Shown here: positions 5,791 to 63,701 of the stretch, piece by piece
Numbering within the stretch: position 1 is the first letter of the stretch
How the letters are laid out: each line of letters starts with the position of its first letter
Origin: Octopus vulgaris
Taxonomy: Eukaryota
Direction of reading: 5' to 3'
Assembly: GCA_951406725.2 (NCBI GenBank)
Contig: OX597824.1
Coordinates: 50,778,001 to 50,842,000 of the forward strand
Length of the DNA: 64,000 nucleotides
Position numbers and translations under genes: made by a program
Notes under the pieces: model-generated
The model's input: the letters and a program-made list of their open reading frames with translations, nothing else
Databases searched by the model: none
Told to the model about the DNA's origin: nothing

Positions 5791-6112
5791 CTCACTGCCT
5801 GAGTACCAATCTTGAGAAATTAGGCTTTTTAAAACCGGAAAGGTACAAGTTAATCGAAGACTATAGATTCAAGCCATCACCGGAACTGTAAAAGTCAGTA
5901 TAACTTTCTAGAAGTTTATCATTTAAGTATATATGAGCAGGTCTATGTATAGAATATATGCATAAAACAAAACTTGCAAATCTGCACTTGTACATACATA
6001 AAAAATATCCTGTTGATGTTGCTGAAATTCCAATGAAGGAGCCTTGGGTCTAGGTTGGGGACCGGCTCTTTCTCTATTGGCAAGAAATCTTGAAATATAA
6101 CTGAATTATAAC
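5791..6112 (+). mobile_element. R4/Dong-type non-LTR retrotransposon 3' end, 5'-truncated, within (CATA)n
   Basis: Aligns by eye with 62603-62926 (ORF end plus 3' UTR); preceded by (CATA)n and followed by CATACATA. Confidence 0.8.
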
Positions 6113-6123
6113 TTACATACATA

Positions 6124-7410
6124 TCAGGTCATCCCATAAGTTCTGTCCGAATTTTGAATAGAGAAAACAAGTGATCAAATGTTATATTTAATTGAAATTT
6201 AATCATCAATGTAATTTCCCTGATTATCTATGACTTCCTTCCATCTATTTACAAGCTTTTTAATCCCATCAATGTAAAACTGTTTTGACTTCAAAGCGAA
6301 GAACTCTGAAATGTCAGTTTCGGCCTCCTCCTGGCTTGCGAATGTTACGTCCTCCAAATGATTCTGTAATCTACGTAACAAATGGTAGTCTGAAAGAGCA
6401 CGGTCGGGAGAATAAGGTGGATGAGGAACTTTTCCCAACTAAGCTCTCCGAACTTCTGTGATGTGATCTTTGTAGTGTGGGGTCGCGCATTGTACTAATG
6501 AAACATCACTCCTTTTCGATTCACTAAAGCGGGTCTTTTTTTTTCTTCAAAGCTTGTTTCAAACTCTCTAATTGCTGAAAGAAGACATGAACATTGATTG
6601 TTGCATTAGGTGGTAACAATTCAAAGTAAATTACTCCTTTGCAATCCCACCAGATAGAGAGAAGAACCTTTTCCCATGAAGTTCCCTTCTCAGTTGTGGT
6701 TGAGCTTTTTCTCTTTTACCAAGCCACTGTTTACGACGTTTAATATTTCGATAGAGATCCATTTTTCGCCACCAGTCAGAAATCTATCCAAAAAAGATGA
6801 AATGAGTTCACGAGAATGGAGAGAAGAGCAGATGTCAACTCGGGATTGGCGGTTGCTTTCGGACAATTCATGAGGCACCCATTTTCCAAGTTTAGGAACT
6901 TTTCCAAGTTGTTGAAGAGGACGATGAACAGTTGCATGGTTTGAACTAAGCTTTATTGCCAATTCTTCAACTGATAATGCAGGATTTTCTTCAAGTAATA
7001 CCTCAAGGAGCTTATCATCAAACTCAAGTGGACGTCCTGTTTGATCTTCATCTTCAAGGCTGAAATTTCCACTTCTGAATTTTGCAAACCATCTTCTGCA
7101 AGTTCATTCATTCAAGCATTCTTTCCCATAAACTGAGTGTATGTTTCGAGTCGTTTCAGCTGCAGAATTCCCTTTTTTGTACTCATAAAGCATTATGTAC
7201 CTCAAATGCTCTTTGGATACTTCCATGTTAGAAAGGGCTTTAATCAAAGAAATTTTAATTCTATTATTCTGTAAAATAATATTGAATTAGTTTAAATGTA
7301 CACAAATGCATAGAAATAATTTTAAATTCCATTAGACATTCTAAAATACTATTAAATTTCATTTAATTTTTAAAAAGGTAAAATTGGACAGAACTTATGG
7401 GATGACCTGA
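6124..7410 (-). mobile_element. Full-length mariner DNA transposon (DD34D, Hsmar1/cecropia-like), 1287 bp
   Basis: TIRs TCAGGTCATCCCATAAGTTCTGTCC at 6124 and its reverse complement ending at 7410; TA on the left, TG on the right (mutated target duplication). Confidence 0.95.
6199..7226 (-). pseudogene. Mariner transposase with stops and frameshifts
   Basis: MEVSKEHLRYIMLYEYKKGNSAAETTRNI...WFAKFRSGNFSLEDE, WVPHEL, TGGEKW (TGDEKW), FH*YNARPH, HPPYSPDRALSDYHL, ending GNYIDD*. Confidence 0.93.
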
Positions 7411-7505
7411 TGTATTGATGGAGCTTGATACGTTTGTTAGAAACCAGCTCCTTCAGAGGAAGAATTTAAATGATTAAAACCAGAAGAGAAACAGACACAC
7501 GCTCG

Positions 7506-7789: not shown

Positions 7790-8057
7790 AACTTTTACTC
7801 CTGTACATCATCAACCTATTTTCCGTTACTTCCAGCATAATATCACTTGTCTTTCCTCTCAAACATGTTACATCCAAGCGTTACCTTCTCGTAACCTACA
7901 CACCTGACCCAAAACCGGCACTTAGTCTATGAATAGAGACCTCGACAAAATCCTCAGAGATCGTGCCTGTCTTGTCTCCTTCAACAGAACAAAATCACTA
8001 TCACTACCTATATCAAGAAAATATTATCACACCTACCCAAACTAAACAAAAATATCT
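7790..8057 (+). mobile_element. LINE RT fragment (CR1/L2/Jockey group), near-identical inverted copy of 12220-12460
   Basis: Encodes LLYIINL (FLLYINDL-like) and MNRDLDKIL...LVSFNRTK; reverse complement found at 12220-12460. Confidence 0.75.
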
Positions 8058-11689: not shown

Positions 11690-12500
11690 GTGAGATTGAC
11701 GGTAACGTTTCTCTTGGGCAGTTGTAAATCGACAGGTACAGGGTCTAACATGTGCAGAGATTGAATTCCAATGGTCTCGTTGTTAGTTCTGAACGTGAGG
11801 TGAGGGAGGAGAAACAATATGGGTGACAAGTGAAATGAAGACGAGTGAGTCGGAAATGCCTGATTTGTGGTGGAAGAAGAGCAGCTAGTATCATGGTATA
11901 GGAACAAAAGAAGCAGAGGTTGAGAGAAAGAGAAGGGGAAGAGGAGAGAGAGTGAGAGAGAAAGAGGGTAAATGAGGAAGAGATAGAACAGGGGAGCTAA
12001 TCCTTACCAGTCAGTCAAGTGACTCTTATTTAGATGCAGTTTAGGGTGTCTGTAAACGTAGCAACAGCACCATGTGGATCTCACCTGAGCTTCGTAGAGG
12101 GTTTGTAGTTGTGTGAGGCTGAAATATTTTCTGTCCCTAAAGTGGAAAGCCAGTCATCCTGACTCAGGATAATGAAACCTTTGGGATTTACTGAAAACCT
12201 TTGGGATTCTCATTCCGCGATATTTTTGTTTAGTTTGGGTAGGTGTGATAATATTTTCTTGATATAGGTAGTGATAGTGATTTTGTTCTGTTGAAGGAGA
12301 CAAGACTGGCACGATCTCTGAGGATTTTGTCGAGGTCTCTATTCATAGACTAAGTGCCGGTTTTGGGTCAGGTGTGTAGGTTATGAGAAGGTAACGCTTG
12401 ACAAGTGATATCATGCTGGAAGTAACGGAAAATAGGTTGATGATGTACAGGAGTAAAAGTGTTGGGTACAAAACCGAAATCTGAGGCACTTCAAAGTCGA
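11690..12500 (-). mobile_element. LINE (CR1/L2/Jockey group) RT and C-terminal remnant, interrupted by a GA tract
   Basis: Minus strand pieces VPQISVLYPTLLLLYIINL (GVPQGSVLSPTLFLLYINDL), RKYFSLTQLQTLYEAQVRS and WNS...VDLQLPKRNV. Confidence 0.75.
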
Positions 12501-13539: not shown

Positions 13540-13770
13540 AGTTCAAATTTACAGAAAACTAATGAAGACAGGGGAGGAAACAACAAGCAGGTGTATTCGC
13601 TTGACGCTCGGGAAGAATGAAAAAGTCTTTGACGTTTCAAGCCTGAGCTCTTCGACAGAAAGGATAGAGAGGGAAAAAATGGAGAGAGAAAAATATGTGG
13701 GGATTAACGGTTTATCCCGACCAAGTCACTGGGAGAAAGAGGCTAACTGAAAAGGAGACAATAATAAGAG
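13540..13770 (-). mobile_element. Short hammerhead-bearing non-autonomous element (family H1)
   Basis: Minus strand CTTT-CTGTCGA-AGAGC.TCAG.GCTT-GAAA-CG-TC^AAAG at 13627-13662; flanks shared with the 19330, 40527, 44285 and 49460 modules. Confidence 0.65.
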
Positions 13771-24714: not shown

Positions 24715-25118
24715 CGTAGGAGTGGCTGTGTGGTAAGAAGCTTGCTAACGAACCACATGGTTCCGGGTTCAGTCCCACTGCGTGGCACCTTGGGCAAGTG
24801 TCTTCTACTATAGCCTCGGGCCAACCAAAGCCTTGTGAGTGGATTTGGTAGACGGAAACTGAAAGAAGCCCGTCGTATATATGTATATATATATGTGTGT
24901 GTGTATGTTTGTGTGTTGTGTTTGCCCCCCCCCCCACATCGCTTGACAACCGATGCTGGTGTGTTTATGTCCCTGTAACTTAGCGGTTCGGCAAAAGAGA
25001 CCGATAGAATAGGTACTAGGCTTACAAAGAATAAGTCCTGGGGTTGATTTGCTCGACTAAAGGTGGTGCTCCAGCATGGCCACAGTCAAATGACTGAAGC
25101 AAGTAAAAGAGTAAAAGA
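24713..25118 (+). mobile_element. SINE family A, full-length reference copy (about 405 bp)
   Basis: Pol III A-box-like TGGCTGTGTGG, B-box-like GGTTCAGTCC, CORE-like CACCTTGGGCAAGTG, internal TA/GT repeat, tandem tail GTAAAAGA; many copies in the window. Confidence 0.9.
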
Positions 25119-25139
25119 GATATATATAAATATATATTT

Positions 25140-28000
25140 CTGGGAGAGTTAGAGGTTGGGAAGCCAACCAACAAAGGGATAGCACCTATCCAATATACTG
25201 CTGGTAGGATGCCCAATTATTAATACCCAAGTGTGTGGCAATTTCGCAATTGAATGTCATATATGGGCAGGGGTTAAATTATTTATCCTTAATCTATACA
25301 GCAAAAAGAAAATGGGGTGGATAGAAAAATGACATACATCAGCCAGTAGACATTCTATTATGTCTATTCCAAAACAAAAGGGAGTGTTATAAGAATACAT
25401 GCACATGCAAAGACTGTGTTACACAAATATATACTAGTATTTACTAGTATACTAGTAATACATCAAATACTAGTATATACATAGTATATACTAGTAATAC
25501 ATCAAACAGTAAAAGATTAAAAAGTCAGTTCCTTACGGCCGCTCCTGCCAAGAGGCCACGATATCCTCCATGCTAGCTGCATTTCTTCAGTGTTCTGTAG
25601 GGATGGGTAGATAGAGTGTGGATGTTGAGTGTGCCTCTAGGCTTCATCAGAGGGTCTAAATGGTTAGGAGAGCCGATACATACAAGAGTCAGTTACTAAT
25701 TGGTACCGTATATTTTTCTTATTGAAGTGGGCATAAGAAGAATAGGAGTAAGACTTAGGAGTGTGAGAGGAGTAAAATTTAGTAAAATGGATTTGATATA
25801 GTAAGGAGAAATAAGTCATATGCTTCAAGTGTTGCCTTCCAAGATTCATGTTATTTTGTCCAGTGGTGAATAGGTAGGTATATTTGTTCTAAGGATGACT
25901 TTTTTTTTAGGAAGGGTAAATTTAGGCAGTGGTTCTTATTTTGTTTACATATAAATACACGTTATGTTTGTATTTACAGTGGTGGGTTTGAAAGTATGGT
26001 CCGTGTTTCAGAGGTGTCAGTTAGTACTAAAGAGAGTATGGCACCAGGTGGTGACCAAAGTACGGTGTTTGATTGTGATTGTTATTTTTTCGATCAACAA
26101 GTCCCTGAATCCTTGTGTGCAGTGGTTATGGTTAGTCCTGCAATCTAATTGGTCAGCTATTTTTTAAACTATGACGCGATTCTGGTTCGTTGATGGTTAA
26201 CAGATAACACAAAAACAAATCAGATAAATAAATAAGTAAATAAATTAATTAAAGAATAAATGGATAAAAAACACCGTAAAAGACACCGTGGCCACTATGG
26301 GCAAGCAGGAGAGTAAAATACCATTCAAACTAGATTAAATTAAATTAAATTAAATCTAGATAAGTAAACAAATAAATAAATGAATAAATAAATAAATGAG
26401 TATGTGAGTGATTACGATAATTAAAGCAATATGATTAAGGGGATATGATCTTAAGGGACAGAATAAGAAAAATAAATTATTGCAAACGCATAAAATAAAA
26501 AATAAAAAACAAAAATGTAAAATATACATCTATCTATCAGGGGAATCAGCTATATTGTTAAACATAATATAGAAGGACAGAGGATTCATTTTTGTTGGAA
26601 GGCGTAATAAGGAGGATTTTCTGACAAGGGACAGCAAATGGAACGGACCGGATCGATTGCTTGTTTTTTCTGCTAAAACCTATACTAGAAAAATATAGAA
26701 TAACGGATATAAAGTATTAAATGGATAGCAATGTGTTATAGCATTAAATTACTAAATTATTTAATTAAGTGAGATCTGTCAGAATGATGTGGACCATACT
26801 TTGAAACCCACCACTGTAAACACAAGCATAACGTGTATTTATATGTAAACAAAATAAGAACCTCGAGTCACCGTTGTTGACCCCAAATATCAGAAAACGA
26901 AAGAATATTGTTCTTATTGTTCTTGTTATTGTTGTGGTAGTTCGTATTCTTTTCTCCATTCTAAAACTACTCTTTGTTGCATCTTCAATTGTGCATGTGT
27001 AACTGCTTCAACCTGGAGATCAGTTTTTACCTCTTGTTTCTTACTTTTTAACATTTCTTTTCTTACAGTCACTTTCGCCACTCGACACGTCTGAATGGTC
27101 CCAACCGGGGACGGGCATATATTGCTGTGTTATAGTCTGTTGTTCTGATTGTTATTGTTTAGAGGTTTTCAGTTGTTGTTGTTGGTGATGTGCTGGCTGT
27201 TTAGGGCGGTGTTGTTCCAGTTGTTTTTCTGTTTTTGCTGCTTCCGCGGTTGCAGGCTTTAGCGTTGCATTTGCTGTCATTCTTGCTGTTGTAGCCGCAT
27301 GCTGTTGTTGATGCTGCTGCTGTTGATGTATGCTGTTGTCGATGCTGCTGGTGTTTCTACTGTTGGTGTTGTTGCTGCTGTGGGGGTGGTGTCAGCAGAA
27401 GAGAAAGATTTGTTTCTCGCTGCTTTGTCTCTGAGTAAAAAATCTTGAAAAGGATTGTGCTACCATACAAGAGACAATGAGTTTTCTCACTCGACGGTCT
27501 CGTACTGTTGTGATCCTCTGATGGATCAGTCAGTTACAGTATAGATTCCATACTTTCATTATCCATTTGAATATCCCGACACTCTGGTTACATACGGGTA
27601 TTTCTGCAAGCAGTTCTTTGTAAAAATTTCTATCGATATTTCTTCTGATGCCTACTACACCATCAGGATATCTGTTTTTATGGTTTTGTATGTGTTCCGC
27701 CAGCTCTCTTTTCCGTTGTTTTCTTACATCGGTGGCTTTGTAAACAAACAAAACTTCTGAAGTTGGTCTTCTTTTTGGCAAATGGATTTCGGTACATTTA
27801 AAACTACGTTTCCTGAGGATCTCGTGAGGTAGTTTTCTTTGTAATTTTTTAAATCTTGAAATAATAAAAAAATTCTTATTTTGGGCTCACAGCGTCGACG
27901 AAACCGCCAACACTAGATTTGCAAATTGTTGTTTCGTAATGTTTCATGAGTTGTTGTTAACGGGGAGTTGAAAGCGGCGGTGGAATTTACAGAAGCATTG
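25140..28000 (-). mobile_element. Heavily degraded, rearranged L1/Tx1-like LINE
   Basis: Minus strand HMTFNCEIATH (C-terminal H..F.C), QLAWRI, and an ORF1-like basic segment at 27530-27781; many stops. Confidence 0.4.
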
Positions 28001-44248: not shown

Positions 44249-44284
44249 CATACATGTATACATCCAGACAGTTTTTTTTTCTCT

Positions 44285-44380
44285 CCATCTGTTTCCTCTT
44301 TTCATTCCTCGAAAGGCTCGAAACGTGAAAGACTACTAATTTTCCTGAGCGTCAAATTAATACAACTTGTTTCGTCTTAA
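44285..44380 (+). mobile_element. Family H1 fragment (hammerhead 3' half GCTC-GAAA-CG-TG)
   Basis: GGCTCGAAACGTGAAAGACT...TTCCTGAGCGTCAAATTAATACA matches the reverse complement of 19385-19432. Confidence 0.6.
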
Positions 44381-44399
44381 TCATTCGCTTTTTTGTTTT

Positions 44400-44700
44400 C
44401 TTATATAATTTCAAACCATATATATGCGGACTTTAGATGTACAATAGACATAACTCTACTTTCACCACCAGTAAAATTCCCAATTGAGAAGGATATCAAG
44501 CAAGGTGATACTATCTCTCCAAAACTCTTTGCGGCGTGTCCAGAAATGGTAATCAAGGAGATCAACAGCACAGGTTGTGTGAACATTAATGGCTAAGACC
44601 CAATCCCCGATTCGTATATGACATTGTACTCATCGCTGAAACCCAAACCAGCTGTACACCATGTTGACAAGGTTGAACACTTAGAGTTTAGCAGTACAAA
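44400..44700 (+). mobile_element. RTE-clade LINE RT fragment
   Basis: IEKDIKQGDTISPKLF...NING, then RFVYDIVLIAE (GVRQGDTISPKLF and LRFADDIVL motifs). Confidence 0.8.
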
Positions 44701-46970: not shown

Positions 46971-48204
46971 CAGGGGTTGGATAAGATAATGGAAACAACT
47001 TAAAATTTCAAACAGATCTTTCATATGTACCGCCTTTGGCAGTAATTACAGCTTGAATTCTACGAGGTATGGACTCGTATAAAGTTTGAATTGTTTCCAA
47101 AGGAATTTTATCCATTCTTCAGCTAAAACAGTCTCCAGTTCTTGTAGTGATGTTCTTCTAAAATGCACCGTAAATGTTCCATAATGTTGAGATCTGGAGA
47201 CTGTGGTGGCCAGATAAGATATTCAACTTCACTAGAATGTTCCTCGTGAGTTCAGTAACAACTTTAGCTGTGTGAATTGGTGCATTATCATCCAGAAAGA
47301 TTGCGTTTCCTTCCAGAAACAGTTTCGCAACCAGAAGATGAATTCGATCAGATAAAATGCTTAAATAGTCTTGACTATTAATTCTGCCATGAAGGGAAAC
47401 CATTGGGCCGGCAGATTTCCAAGATATAGCCCCCCAACCAGATCATCACAGATCCTCCTCCATGTTTAACAGTTGGAAGAAGGCAGTCTGGGTCAAATGT
47501 TTCTTCTGACTGTCTCCACACGTATACTGGGCCGGTGGTCTGAAATAAGGTAAAGGATGACTCGTCCGAAAAAATAACATACTTCCACTGCTTGAGGGAC
47601 CAATTCTGTAGGTTTTTACCCCACTGTAACGGCTTTGCAACGTTTGTTTTTGAAAGTAGTGGTTTTCTGATTGCGGCTCTCCCGTGAAATCCGGTTTTGT
47701 GCAGCTTCCGGCCAACAGTTCTTGTGGGAAGTAGGTTCTTGAGGTAGTGATTAAGCTCTGCAGTAATTTTGGGAGCTGTACTATCGTGATCTTTTCTAAC
47801 AATTCGTGTAAGAGCCCGACTATCTCTATCTGAAAGTTTTAGCTTTTTTTCCGGAGTTTTGTTTCGACGAGGTTTTTTTCCCCTCTTTCTCAATGGCTAT
47901 CATTACTTTCGAGACAGTACTTCTTGATACACCGAACATTTCGGCTTTTTTCGTTATTATAGCATCTGCTATACGAGTACCAACAATTTGACCTCTTTGA
48001 AAGTCCGATACATCTGTCATTTTAATGAATCTTAATTACCTTTTTTTGATGATATCTGAAAAGAAACAGCAATTTTAGCAAATCATTAATCAACGCTAAT
48101 AATAAATCAAAAAACATAAAAATAAACAAGCTTTTGACGGTTTTATAGATATTTCAAAATTATGATGCTATTATGCTAGGTATTCCCATTATTTTGTCCA
48201 AACC

Positions 48205-48207
<3 letters not shown>
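46971..48207 (-). mobile_element. Full-length Tc1-family DNA transposon (DD34E), 1237 bp, TA-flanked
   Basis: TIRs CAGGGGTTGGATAAGATAATGGAAA and CAGGGTTTGGACAAAATAATGGGAA; TA on both sides. Confidence 0.93.
47030..48020 (-). pseudogene. Tc1 transposase, frameshifted
   Basis: MTDVSDFQRGQIVG...AEMFGVSRSTVSKV, RKPLLS, VIFSDES, KHGGGSVMIW, FLDDNAPIH, WPPQSPDLNIMEH. Confidence 0.92.
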
Positions 48208-48257
<50 letters not shown>

Positions 48258-48261
<4 letters not shown>

Positions 48262-48685
48262 CCACTGGTAGCGGAGAATTTTTCTAGAATTAAAAAAAAA
48301 TTTTTTTTGCTACCCTAAGATTTATTAATTAATGATAAAAGGCTTTTTGATTAATTTTGAAAGAAAATCAGCAATTATATTTACTGCTGAAAAAACCACG
48401 CGTGCGTGGTGGATTTTGAAAAGTTATAGAATATAGATTCGAGGCATGGTCCTTATCGCCTCGTGCCTATATGTTAGCCTTGGCTTCCTGCTGAAGATGG
48501 CATTTTATTTTATTTACAAAAGATTGCCGAAACTATGCATAGTCCAGGAAAGATAGGGTAAACGTTTTTATTTCTCTTTCCCTTTCAGAATTACAACTAT
48601 TAGTGGTTTGGAGTTTAACTGCTCTTTCGTATATATACATACGTCACTAAAAGTTGTAAAATTGCTAATTAGTCACTCATATTAT
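48258..48685 (+). mobile_element. About 430-bp non-coding module between TA tracts carrying a hammerhead
   Basis: Begins ACCACTGGTAG...TACCCTAAGATTTATTAATT (motif shared with 42170 and 56271); TA tracts on both sides. Confidence 0.6.
48485..48550 (+). ncRNA. Type I hammerhead ribozyme motif
   Basis: TTCCTG-CTGAAGA-T-GGCA...TGCC-GAAA-CTATGCATAG-TC^CAGGAA: 6-bp helix I, intact core, palindromic helix III, GUC triplet. Confidence 0.85.
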
Positions 48686-48686
48686 A

Positions 48687-48740
<54 letters not shown>

Positions 48741-48748
<8 letters not shown>

Positions 48749-49451
48749 TGAGAATGTGTGTCTGTCTGTGTGTTTCCCTAAAACTTGAGAACTACACAAC
48801 CAATTTCATTCAAATTTTACACATGCCTTACTTAGGGTCCGGGGAGTGTCATCGGCAAAACAAAATGTTCAACTTTTTGCCTAGAGTGAGCCCATAGCAA
48901 TATCATATCTTCTCCACTATTTCAGTATTACGTGTTAAAAGTGAAACAAAAATATTTCTCTATTTTATGTCAGATGCTTTCACTTTAACAATACAAATAA
49001 TAATAACAATTGAATTATATGTAGTAAGTAATAATTAAAATCAAACTAAAGTATAATATAATCGTAACATACAAAAGTAAAAATAGCAATTGGTATAAAA
49101 CTGCATCAATGATTTGAACTTGAATAAGTGGTTTCACATGAATGGGAATAATTAAAAATAAAATTAGCGTGCAGAAATGGAATAGTCCAGATGGATAATA
49201 AAAAATTAAATTAAAGAAAAGACTATTATCTATAAAGTATACAATATAGAGAAAAAAGAAGAGCTAACAATTCCAGTCTGTTATATATTTTGAGTATTGT
49301 TATCACTAGCGATATCAAGATATAACTTTGTATTTTGCATTTTATGTGTAGATGTATATATAAAGATGTACATGTAATATGTACACACATATATACACAT
49401 ATATACATGCACTAGCACTATGACCCGGCAACGACGGGTCTTTAATGCTGG
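48741..49451 (+). mobile_element. Non-autonomous Helitron (about 700 bp)
   Basis: 5' (TA)nTATAAAACTGAGAATGTGTGTCTGTCTGT...CCAATTTCATTCAAATTT, similar to the 44958 5' end; 3' hairpin GACCCG-GCAACGA-CGGGTC then TTTAATG-CTGG|T. Confidence 0.75.
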
Positions 49452-49459
49452 TATATATA

Positions 49460-49986
<527 letters not shown>

Positions 49987-55866: not shown

Positions 55867-56330
55867 ATTTAAACACAAAGAGGCGAGCCATAACAGATTG
55901 CCTAACATACTAGAAAGAACAGTCAAAAAGTCCAGACCATAGTTAAGAGCAATTCTGAAGGGAATAAAAAATAAAAACATTCACCATGTTTTACAGCCGG
56001 ACCTCAGGTTTCGAACTTTAATTGGTAAATAAAATAATCTGCAAGGCGAAGTTCTCATCAGCGGATACACCAAAACATTAACATTTAAATTAGAGACCAA
56101 ATAACACGTGTCTCATCCGTATATATTAGGATATAAATTGCACTTAACTGTGGACTGGAATTTTGACTGTTCTTTCTAGTATGTGAGGCAACCTGTTAAG
56201 GCTTGCCTCTTTGTGTTTAAATGTACACTGATTCTTATATGAAAATATGTCTACTGACTTTGTATACATACTAGGCCACTGGTAGAAAACTTTTCTATAA
56301 TTTTTCCTACCCTATATTAATTTTAAGAAA
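55867..56330 (-). mobile_element. Fold-back module: about 68-bp inverted repeats (55867-55935 and 56155-56222) enclosing a hammerhead
   Basis: Arms visible directly; motif TAGGCCACTGGTAG...TACCCTATATTAATT at 56271-56322. Confidence 0.7.
55997..56064 (-). ncRNA. Type I hammerhead ribozyme motif
   Basis: Minus strand CCG-CTGATGA-GAACTT...AAGTTC-GAAA-CCTGAGG-TC^CGG: canonical core, 6-bp helix II with a G-C first pair, GUC triplet. Confidence 0.82.
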
Positions 56331-56464: not shown

Positions 56465-56627
56465 GGCGCAGGAGTGGCTGTATGGTAAGTAGCTTCCTTA
56501 CCAACCACATGGTTCTGGGTTCAGTCCCACTGCGTAACACCTTGAGCAAGTGTCTTCTACTATAGCCTCGAGCCGACCAAAGACTTGTGAGTGGATTTGG
56601 TAAACGGAAACTGAAAGAAGCCCGTCG

Positions 56628-56688
<61 letters not shown>

Positions 56689-56908
56689 GTATGTGTATGT
56701 GTGTGTGTGTGTGTGTTTGCCCTTATTTGTCCCCCCAATATCGCTTGACAACCGATGATGGCGTGTTTACGTTCGGCAAAAGACCCCGATAGAATAAGTA
56801 CTAGACTTACAAACAAAATATCCTGGGGTCGATTTGCTCGACTACATGCAGTGTTCCAGCATGGCCGCAGTGAAATGAGTGAAACAAGTAAAAGAATAGA
56901 ATAAAAGA
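56465..56908 (+). mobile_element. SINE family A, full-length
   Basis: GGCGCAGGAGTGGCTGTATGGTAAGTAGC... through GAAACAAGTAAAAGAATAGAATAAAAGA. Confidence 0.9.
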
Positions 56909-62149: not shown

Positions 62150-62926
62150 TTCGTTGTGGAGTTAACACCGAAGATATCACCCACATCATAAGCAGTTGTC
62201 CGAAAATGTCATCACAGTATTATCTACAGATGAGATATGATGCTGGAGCTATGACACTCTATAATGAAATCCGTCGGAAGGATAATCCTGAGGACAAAGA
62301 AATAAGAACTCACAGTATGGTAGAAGCCATAGCCATTCATAATAAAAAAGAGTACTGGTGGAATGTACCAGTGAAGACCTCAATAAAATGTAAGCACAAC
62401 AGACCTGATATAATGATTTGGAATAGAGAAGAGAAACTGTGCACAGTTATGGAAATTAGCTGCCCAGCGGATGTCAACATAAAGCTGAAGATTAGCGAAA
62501 AAGAGAAAACCTACGCTGAACTATTGAGAAATTTGCAATTACTCTATCCAGATTACAAGTTCAGGTTTATACCTGTAATTATTGGGACCCTGAGATAGGT
62601 ATCACACTGCCAAAATACCAATCTTGAGAAATTAGGCTTCTGAAAACCAGAAAGTAGAAAGCTAATTCGAAGACAACAGATCCAATCCATCACTGGAACT
62701 GTAAAAATTTGTAAAACTTTCCAGAAGTTTATCATTTAACTACATATGAGCATGTCTAGATATGCAAATATATGCATGAGAATACACACATAAAACAAAA
62801 CATACAAGTCTGCACATATTCGTACAAATATACATACCAACAAAAATACCTGTTGATGTTGAAATTCTAATGAAGGAACCTTTGATTTAGGTTAGAACCA
62901 GGCTCTTTCTCTATTGGCAAGAAATA
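62150..62926 (+). mobile_element. R4/Dong-type LINE 3' portion (CCHC knuckle, REL endonuclease, 3' UTR) within (CATA)n
   Basis: CGVNTEDITHIISSC, RYD (RHD), WWNVP, HNRPDIMIW...EISCP, KEKTY, FIPVIIGTL; two in-frame stops, ORF ends at 62739. Confidence 0.9.
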
Positions 62927-63292: not shown

Positions 63293-63701
63293 TTACTCTT
63301 TACTCTCTACTCTTTTGCTTGTTTCAGTCATTTGACTGCGGCCATGCTGGAGCACCGCCTTTTAGTCGAGCAAATCAACCCCGGGACTTATTCTTTTTAA
63401 GCCCAGTACTTGTTCTATCGGTCTCTTTTGACGAACCGCTAAGTTACGGGGACGTAAACACAACAGCATCGGTTGTCAACCAATGCTGGGGGGACAAACA
63501 CAGACACACAAACACACACACACACACATATATATATACATATATACGACGGGCTTCTTTCAGTTTCCGTCTACCAAATCCACTCACAAGACATTGATCG
63601 GCCCGGGGCTATAGCAAAAGACACTTGCCCAAGATGCCACGCAGTGGGACTGAACCCGGAACCATGTGGTTGGTTAGCAAGCTACTTACCACACAGCCAC
63701 T
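63293..63701 (-). mobile_element. SINE family A, near full-length young copy
   Basis: High identity to the reverse complement of 24713-25118. Confidence 0.92.

Follow-up and report, generated by a model that had tools for sequence, protein, structure and literature searches.

Hammerhead ribozymes in the terminal repeats (pLTRs) of metazoan Penelope-like elements (PLEs) are type I motifs in which an unpaired base lies between positions 9 and 10.1; this base, written into the consensus CUGANGAH, is listed as conserved in PMC4209133, where a G10.1-C11.1 pair and a palindromic helix III emerge as further traits across metazoan examples and a similar base is noted in some canonical hammerheads, with reference to De la Pena and Flores 2001. 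These motifs are described in the same source as inactive as monomers and weak as dimers, and the dimer mechanism of palindromic type I motifs has been reviewed (PMC6155905). In the green anole, a PLE hammerhead cut only together with the protein of the element, cutting was dispensable for insertion, and reverse transcription started internally, in a stem-loop downstream of the hammerhead (PMC11167929). Insertions of PLEs are marked by inverted arms, a one-sided tail of 30-40 nt, partial tandems and microsatellite targets (PMC8557442). Animal retrozymes are reported to derive from PLE terminal repeats, and one of nine frog retrozymes cut in vitro (10.64898/2026.07.22.740005).

Our literature search found no paper on hammerhead-bearing repeats in cephalopods: these animals are absent from the 56-row alignment of PMC4209133, a term search of PMC7229834 returned no such repeat from them, and none is covered in the text of 10.64898/2026.07.22.740005; repeat databases or the supplement of PMC8557442 may already hold the family described here. 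We analysed a 64,000-nt stretch of Octopus vulgaris DNA (hereafter the window; positions are counted from its first base) that contains a hammerhead motif at 48485-48550. We consider it probable that this motif is a PLE-type type I hammerhead lying in one truncated copy, with part of its sequence deleted, of a plentiful repeat that does not code for protein and that is likely a non-autonomous PLE derivative whose closed unit measures ~0.48 kb.

Structure of the hammerhead motif

The motif, recovered both by a descriptor scan and in the predicted fold, occupies 48485-48550 of the + strand and is a type I hammerhead of the PLE kind, with a CUGANGA core, GAAA and an NUH triplet arranged round three helices, of which helix I is open. 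Helix I pairs TTCCTG (48485-48490) with CAGGAA (48545-48550) through six Watson-Crick pairs. The catalytic core CTGAAGA (48491-48497), equivalent to C3-U4-G5-A6-A7-G8-A9, is followed by an extra T (U in the RNA) at 48498, between A9 and G10.1, and then by helix II, in which GGCA (48499-48502) pairs with TGCC (48525-48528) and G48499-C48528 is the G10.1-C11.1 pair. The resulting stem-loop II (48499-48528) combines a 4-bp stem with a 22-nt AU-rich loop. Downstream lie GAAA (48529-48532) and a 10-nt palindrome, CTATGCATAG (48533-48542), which together with A15.1/U16.1 gives a helix III region that is self-complementary over 12 nt (48532-48543) according to the fold prediction. The predicted cut, between C48544 and 48545, follows the G-T-C triplet; standard hammerhead numbering agrees here with an earlier note on this DNA, which had placed cleavage after 48544, and every feature that the note had described, including the complete set of catalytic nucleotides, was found on the + strand at the position given for it.

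A strict descriptor (helix I of at least 5 bp, helix II of at least 4 bp) matched this one site in the window and had no match in any of 200 block-wise dinucleotide shuffles of the window. A relaxed descriptor (helix I of at least 3 bp) retrieved a second site as well, with its core at 56061 on the - strand, and a single match occurred in one of 200 shuffled windows. Rfam returned no hammerhead, either for the whole window at the gathering score or for 47500-49500 at E<=10. This silence of Rfam, together with a folding energy of the isolated motif no better than that of shuffles, could be taken to favor a chance arrangement of bases, but the motif was found in 0 of 200 shuffled windows and the related copy (core 56061) retains core and helices with different letters, and we regard the probability of such an accident as negligible. 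Judged by its sequence, 48485-48550 is a genuine type I hammerhead motif.

The base between positions 9 and 10.1

The earlier note had proposed that the extra U may be a core variant particular to one lineage. This proposal does not survive comparison with the published PLE consensus, which has a base at the same place: by our own count of the alignment in PMC4209133, it is present in 54 of 56 aligned motifs and is a U in 12 of them, and exactly CUGAAGAU stands in four of the 56 rows (a planarian, two nematodes and a limpet). The companion statement, that one-nucleotide insertions also occur in other copies that the note had called H1, held for two likely ones (cores at 49595 and 13658, - strand), both of which carry an extra A; the related copy with its core at 56061 (- strand) has no extra base. 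On the aligned sequences, the extra base is a marker of PLE origin and not of this lineage. All three PLE-type traits occur together at 48485-48550, namely the extra T48498, the G48499-C48528 pair and a palindromic helix III.

The likeness to the pLTR hammerheads of PMC4209133 extends further, since both belong to type I and possess a CUGANGAH core plus an extra base, both have G10.1-C11.1, a palindromic helix III and a U-rich 5' side, and both occur as dispersed lone copies, some in opposite orientation. The differences are that the palindrome is 10 nt long in the octopus and up to 8 nt in the aligned PLE examples, that helix I of the octopus motif has 6 bp with further pairing beyond, that its stem II has a basal part of 4 bp, extended in relatives by a long outer stem, and that no linked ORF was found for the octopus copy. 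The motif is thus a new example of an already known kind of PLE-type hammerhead.

A9, the extra U and G10.1 also spell AUG (48497-48499), in a frame that closes after 19 codons; the ORF of the green anole PLE likewise opens where stem II starts (PMC11167929).

The repeat copy and its family

The ribozyme is carried by a non-coding repeat copy at 48258-48628 (+), delimited by contig alignment, frame scan and predicted fold. On its left, (TA)25 (48208-48257), at the end of a Tc1 transposon remnant, is the likely insertion target; its right flank is (TA)n at 48679-48744, preceded by a low-copy spacer with a short inverted scrap (48645-48659, -) that repeats 14 of the 15 bases of 48591-48605. Contigs from four public runs, two of DNA and two guessed to be RNA, were aligned to 48260-48676. 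The two DNA runs, which bear two organism labels, contributed 476 and 761 aligning contigs, mostly less than 95% alike, and this alignment marks 48258-48628 as one member of a repeat family of large size. The match among family members ends at 48628; beyond that base, 32 and 36 contigs continue with other letters common to them, and the copy at 56 kb ceases to match at the same base and continues with letters similar to theirs. The guessed-RNA runs yielded 14 and 11 contigs, all from other copies and with no cover at 48456-48497, which speak neither for nor against expression of the 48258-48628 copy. No raw-read RNA run was found to contain the stretch, and smaller shares of it were indicated for three further organism labels outside the four aligned runs.

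The longest stop-free stretch in 48258-48628 is 39 codons in six frames, and the ORF of an autonomous PLE (telomerase-like RT and GIY-YIG) is absent from the copy. In a Pfam scan of 148 of the 705 stop-free frames of the window (the longer, non-repetitive ones), no RT or GIY-YIG domain and no host exon near the hammerhead were found; the matches were pieces of mariner and Tc1 transposases only. The RNA of 48258-48628 is strongly self-paired (predicted fold z -4.09), and the window is 36% GC and full of microsatellites. A pattern scan for relatives gave 0 matches in metagenome contigs, viral contigs and prokaryote genomes, as expected for an animal repeat.

Immediately after the ribozyme lies a 31-nt stretch of the form GT...pyrimidine tract...CAG (48558-48588, +; 30 nt in the 56-kb copy), recognized by sequence comparison and fold prediction and similar in appearance to a splice acceptor. 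A mini-intron here (GT at 48558, AG at 48588) was considered but found no support: no joint skipping the stretch occurs in the four runs, and the listed contigs of both guessed-RNA runs read through 48558-48588. An ORF start was rejected for the region after the ribozyme, where the AUG frame ends at 19 codons and all six frames are short. Upstream, a small hairpin precedes the ribozyme by ~25-50 nt in both copies (48440-48463, and 56116-56095 on the - strand); as read by eye, its 5-bp stem closes a loop of 12 nt and differs between the copies by a single compensatory change (A-T versus G-C).

Related copies in the window

Descriptor and alignment placed a related copy at 55867-56135 on the - strand, 69% alike to 48500-48628 over 134 columns, which contains a hammerhead of its own (core 56061-56055, predicted to cut after 56000). 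Its hammerhead (56061-55997) has a 6-bp helix II, a near-palindromic 7-nt helix III, U at position 1.7 and a possible 7-bp distal helix I. An inverted arm adjoins it at 56136-56330 (+), made of an 88-bp mirror of its 3' part, ~108 nt more and then (TA)n; the ~108-nt extension ends in the module seen at 48259-48330.

A probable third and more distant member lies at 49672-49870 (-), with a 101-nt hairpin head, a terminal module of the same type and a (TA)n end; the ribozyme part is absent. It is included because of its match to the 56-kb copy, the two ends aligning with a score reached by 2 of 1000 shuffles; compared directly with 48258-48335, its end gives no significant match (702 of 1000 shuffles score as well). 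The head itself, 49770-49870, is a near-perfect 101-nt palindrome adjoining a long (TA)n and is probably the inverted head of a short PLE-type insertion that has its end at 49672, immediately upstream of the element at 49595 on the - strand.

That element belongs to a separate family of minimal PLE-type hammerheads, found at 49595 (-), 13658 (-) and 44262-44426 (+), which have an extra A, a 4-bp stem II and a two-base palindromic helix III and which each lie ~100-130 nt ahead of an end in TA repeats. One core base is changed in the copy at 13658 (-), and most of the core and stem II is lost from that at 44262-44426 (+).

A probable closed unit and insertion geometry

The 48258-48628 copy begins with a terminal module (48258-48334, +) that contains a hairpin at 48267-48316 and is delimited by loose contig ends at 48331 and 48334 and by a drop in depth. 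In other copies this module is the end adjacent to (TA)n; in the present one it comes first, forming the upstream part of a partial tandem, and the copy is made up of a 75-nt end piece followed by one unit missing ~170 nt at its end.

Three observations bear on the unit. The first is that the 56-kb copy has an inverted arm leading from the shared 3' part, over 98 nt, to a module matching 48259-48330, with a score reached by 0 of 1000 shuffles; with TA runs masked, this is the best non-self match to 48259-48330 among 1277 tiles, while TA-containing tiles outscore it when the runs are left unmasked. The comparison was made by local alignment with shuffles, as global MAFFT alignments misplaced the module. 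The second is a single contig of run X15 in which 48601 is connected back to 48260 across unknown intervening letters. The third is that the 48334/48335 boundary is crossed by diverged contigs (four records from three runs), each with 15-25 other letters. Taken together, these observations indicate a closed unit of ~0.48 kb, whose length (~369 + 13 to 23 + 98 = 480-490 nt) is pieced from two subfamilies ~69% alike.

(TA)n follows the terminal module in the inverted arm at 56 kb, in the member that ends at 49672, and in two X20 contigs (at 48331 and 48334). In both DNA runs the summed contig depth drops ~sixfold or more between 48329 and 48344; summed depths are not copy numbers, and the drop after 48343 could reflect subfamily divergence. 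On these ends, 48331-48334 is read as the usual 3' end of family copies.

Marks of PLE-type insertion are present in the family: partial tandems, an inverted 5'-truncated arm, a one-sided tail and microsatellite targets, as seen at 55867-56330, at 49672-49870, in two opposite-strand contig joints and in loose ends within (TA)n. The tail of the 56-kb copy, ~108 nt, is longer than the 30-40 nt described for PLEs (PMC8557442), and a target-site duplication is not readable inside the (TA)n flanks. Self-BLAST found no tandem array in the window, and no period near 480 occurs among the 150 of 175 tandem repeats listed. Head-to-tail joints are seen in relatives, with no array of two complete units at the locus or in the contigs and no listed contig spanning the whole of 48260-48676; the back-joint seen in X15, a run whose RNA nature is only a guess, is equally compatible with a circle and with a tandem. 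No autonomous partner PLE was found, and the link to PLEs draws on ribozyme style and insertion geometry.

The starts of the inverted arms are more regular than those of the main arms, which begin at varied places (~48420, 48507, 48524). In both opposite-strand contig joints, one arm begins at 48583 or 48589; the inverted arm of the 56-kb copy begins exactly after the AG equivalent to that at 48588, and the hairpin head at 49770-49870 aligns weakly from ~48582. A fixed RNA 5' end, set by transcription start or processing ~40 nt past the cut, would explain these arm starts, a suggestion that we offer as a lead only, the regularity comprising four cases of which two are single contigs and one a weak alignment.

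Another possible origin is that the copy represents no more than the terminal repeat (pLTR plus tail), in truncated form, of an autonomous PLE. The closed unit would then be only apparent, produced by short copies inserting into one another's ends, and an independent non-autonomous family would not exist. In genomes, PLE hammerheads are mostly lone truncated copies (PMC4209133), a PLE can integrate into its own pLTR (PMC11167929), an expansion of Penelope LINEs in octopus has been reported (PMC8967140), and the AUG that the extra U creates at the start of stem II recalls the ORF start of the anole PLE. However, diverged contigs of three runs have the 48334/48335 junction in common, one contig together with the 56-kb copy completes the unit from its opposite side, and the AUG frame has 19 codons with no frame longer than 39, which makes this origin unlikely in our judgment. 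A comparison with PAc, the Poseidon PLE of the green anole (PMC11167929), shows both likenesses and differences: in each case the hammerhead lies near the element end with an AUG where stem II starts, and copies end internally downstream of the ribozyme in AT-rich targets. PAc is autonomous, with a tail of ORF sequence that ends 111-118 nt after the start codon; unlike it, the octopus copies end ~250 nt past the cut site, and coding is absent.

With regard to animal non-LTR retrozymes (PMC7229834, 10.64898/2026.07.22.740005), the octopus repeat, like them, does not code, is a few hundred bases long and contains a type I hammerhead, which is one of the features of a non-LTR retrozyme, and both are AT-rich and strongly self-paired, with a head-to-tail joint and many dispersed monomers. 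The octopus ribozyme differs in being PLE-type, not canonical; inverted arms and (TA)n targeting of the octopus copies are PLE insertion marks, unlike the pattern of animal non-LTR retrozymes. One might also class the repeat among the classical non-LTR retrozymes, bearing a type I hammerhead of canonical form, living in long tandem arrays, making abundant circular RNA and having only a loose tie to PLEs. A unit size near the 150-450 bp range, low GC with strong self-pairing (z -4.09) and the head-to-tail joint in a run guessed to be RNA would suit such an element, but its ribozyme traits are those of PLEs, its copies are dispersed, below unit length and furnished with inverted arms, and a tandem array is absent from the window. 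We rate this identification as quite improbable, noting that it overlaps with the non-autonomous PLE derivative that we prefer and differs from it mainly in degree.

Stem-loop II and position 1.7

The hammerhead had been called the best preserved, which holds among the four hammerhead motifs seen in the window; within its own repeat family it does not, as stem-loop II is longer in relatives, the copy breaks off early, at 48628, and position 1.7 is A. Family relatives have 13-23 more bases in stem-loop II, after 48501-48504, and these are complementary to 48509-48519. In a listing of 32 contig pieces, out of a set with 1252 more, a single piece bridges 48502, doing so with 13 gap letters, and six start at 48502-48505, preceded by loose letters that comprise the start of ribozyme stem II and a stretch complementary to 48509-48519. 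Because the extra bases of the relatives are complementary to 48509-48519, the 48485-48550 hammerhead has lost the 5' arm of an outer stem. In intact family members, domain II contains such an outer stem, interrupted by an internal loop, and the 22-nt loop 2 seen here is a deletion product.

Position 1.7 is A in the 48485-48550 hammerhead and U in the 56-kb copy and some contigs. In solved hammerheads U1.7 makes an activating contact, although not every natural one has U, and in the canonical stabilized type I form an unpaired U1.7 touches an A of a short loop 2 (PMC11875169); at 48485-48550 this arrangement is absent, with A at 1.7 and a loop 2 of 22 nt. Among the 40 variant rows listed, none falls in 48453-48547 and five fall in 48548-48554; since 21 further rows lie outside the listing and contig cover is thin over 48456-48497, the variant-free core region is not counted as evidence of selection.

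Predicted folding and cutting

For isolated RNAs of 66 nt and 101 nt, the predicted minimum-energy fold is the hammerhead, with a probability of 0.15-0.19, and their folding energies are no better than those of shuffles (z -0.04 and -0.52); these and the following predictions refer to equilibrium without tertiary contacts. Helix I is predicted to continue further through an internal loop. Helix III of the monomer is predicted as a 4-bp hairpin with a pair probability of 0.4-0.5, whereas two copies joined through helix III would form a 12-bp duplex at -15.9 kcal/mol, and the cofold minimum of two RNAs is a double hammerhead with a 12-bp helix III. The comparison of monomer and dimer constructs envisaged in the earlier note is apt because the predicted dimer fold is a double hammerhead. 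A partner in cis is absent, the 56-kb copy lying on the other strand with a different palindrome and not being predicted to fold as a hammerhead in the stretch tried.

In RNA starting at 48258, the hammerhead probability is 0.15 with the 3' end at 48570-48580 and 0.0001 from 48590 on, a loss past ~48590 that arises because the pyrimidine tract (48574-48588) is predicted to pair with the 3' strand of helix I. A construct limited to 48470-48570, such as had been proposed for a cleavage assay, omits this competing tract, so that a positive result with it would not show activity at the locus. On balance, we think it somewhat more likely than not that a short T7 transcript would cut, slowly, at high Mg2+; the extended helix I and a helix III longer than in most PLE motifs may make the monomer more active than assumed. 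For a lone relic with a damaged stem-loop II and no tandem partner, a role of this hammerhead in the cell is unlikely.

These predictions bear on whether the locus holds a fully active monomeric hammerhead that cuts a host transcript on the + strand. The core is intact, with a GUC triplet and a 6-bp helix I with pairing beyond, a helix III hairpin is possible in the monomer, the minimum-energy fold of the short RNA is the hammerhead, and a folding window during transcription is predicted. Nevertheless, stem-loop II carries a deletion relative to its kin, A stands at 1.7 where U makes an activating contact (PMC11875169), published PLE hammerheads are weak, inactive as monomers or dependent on protein (with the frog figure of one in nine given above), and no host exon was found nearby, all of which leaves such activity highly improbable.

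Other elements in the window

The remainder of the window contains further mobile sequences. A broken Tc1-like transposase (47158-48207, -; Pfam HTH_Tnp_Tc3_2, E 1e-11) has its end abutting the (TA)25; a protein search with Tc1 sequence placed its host no more narrowly than among animals. A mariner-like remnant at 6123-7411 shows inverted ends of 33 bp together with HTH pieces of the Mos1 type (Pfam HTH_48, E 1e-13). A fragment of a non-LTR retroelement with Cys/His and PD-like nuclease motifs lies at ~62150-62925 (+), partly repeated at 5793-6088, and presumably resembles R4/Dong elements; its part at ~62150-62595 is 72% identical to an Octopus bimaculoides protein, the best-identity named match (two of 33 matches are named). 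Two inverted repeats were also seen: one of 72 bp (25931-26002 and 26791-26862), 96% alike and ~790 bp apart, between whose arms scans found no hammerhead, and a long one (7791-8056 and 12219-12460), with 182 nt at 99% and ~4.2 kb apart, which encloses microsatellite-rich DNA. An abundant SINE-like dispersed repeat of 200-400 bp occurs at 24721-25113, 63308-63701, 56473-56900 and more than 10 other places, its copies usually adjoining TA or CA repeats.

A model for the family and its significance

If the 48258-48628 copy is a shortened member of a non-autonomous PLE derivative, the following course of events can be proposed. The family is large and non-coding, lies in (TA)n and forms partial tandems and inverted arms, as observed. 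From PLE biology, intact tandem copies would be transcribed, and the RT-endonuclease of an autonomous PLE would nick AT-rich DNA; reverse transcription would start inside the RNA near the hairpin module ending at 48331-48334, ~250 nt downstream of the cut. The hammerhead is predicted to cut after GUC mainly as a dimer through the 12-nt palindrome, within a short window during RNA synthesis, as the pyrimidine tract at 48574-48588, once transcribed, would engage the 3' strand of helix I in pairing and so abolish the fold. By this cutting, RNA of several units would be reduced to pieces of unit length. The 48258-48628 copy itself would be a lone relic cut at its 3' side, with a damaged stem-loop II and without a tandem partner. 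Since the one PLE examined together with its protein could insert without hammerhead cleavage, the cutting step may be dispensable.

A more far-reaching proposal is that octopuses harbor a large undescribed superfamily of 0.48-kb retrozyme-like PLE parasites, whose intact members would possess a monomer-active hybrid hammerhead (a PLE-type core with internal loops in helices I and II and U1.7), a downstream pyrimidine off-switch, circular RNA in abundance and a constant start of the RNA ~40 nt beyond the cut. We regard this as distinctly unlikely in its full form.

A single motif of this kind matters little, as animal genomes contain thousands of PLE-type hammerheads in which the extra base is standard. 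The family is of modest interest. Its natural pairs, with stem-loop II intact or deleted and with U or A at position 1.7, bear on the weakness of PLE hammerheads, and a fixed start of the inverted arms, if true, would offer a direct way to study the formation of PLE inverted repeats. An octopus family of this type would extend the model in which retrozymes arise from PLEs from vertebrates to molluscs.
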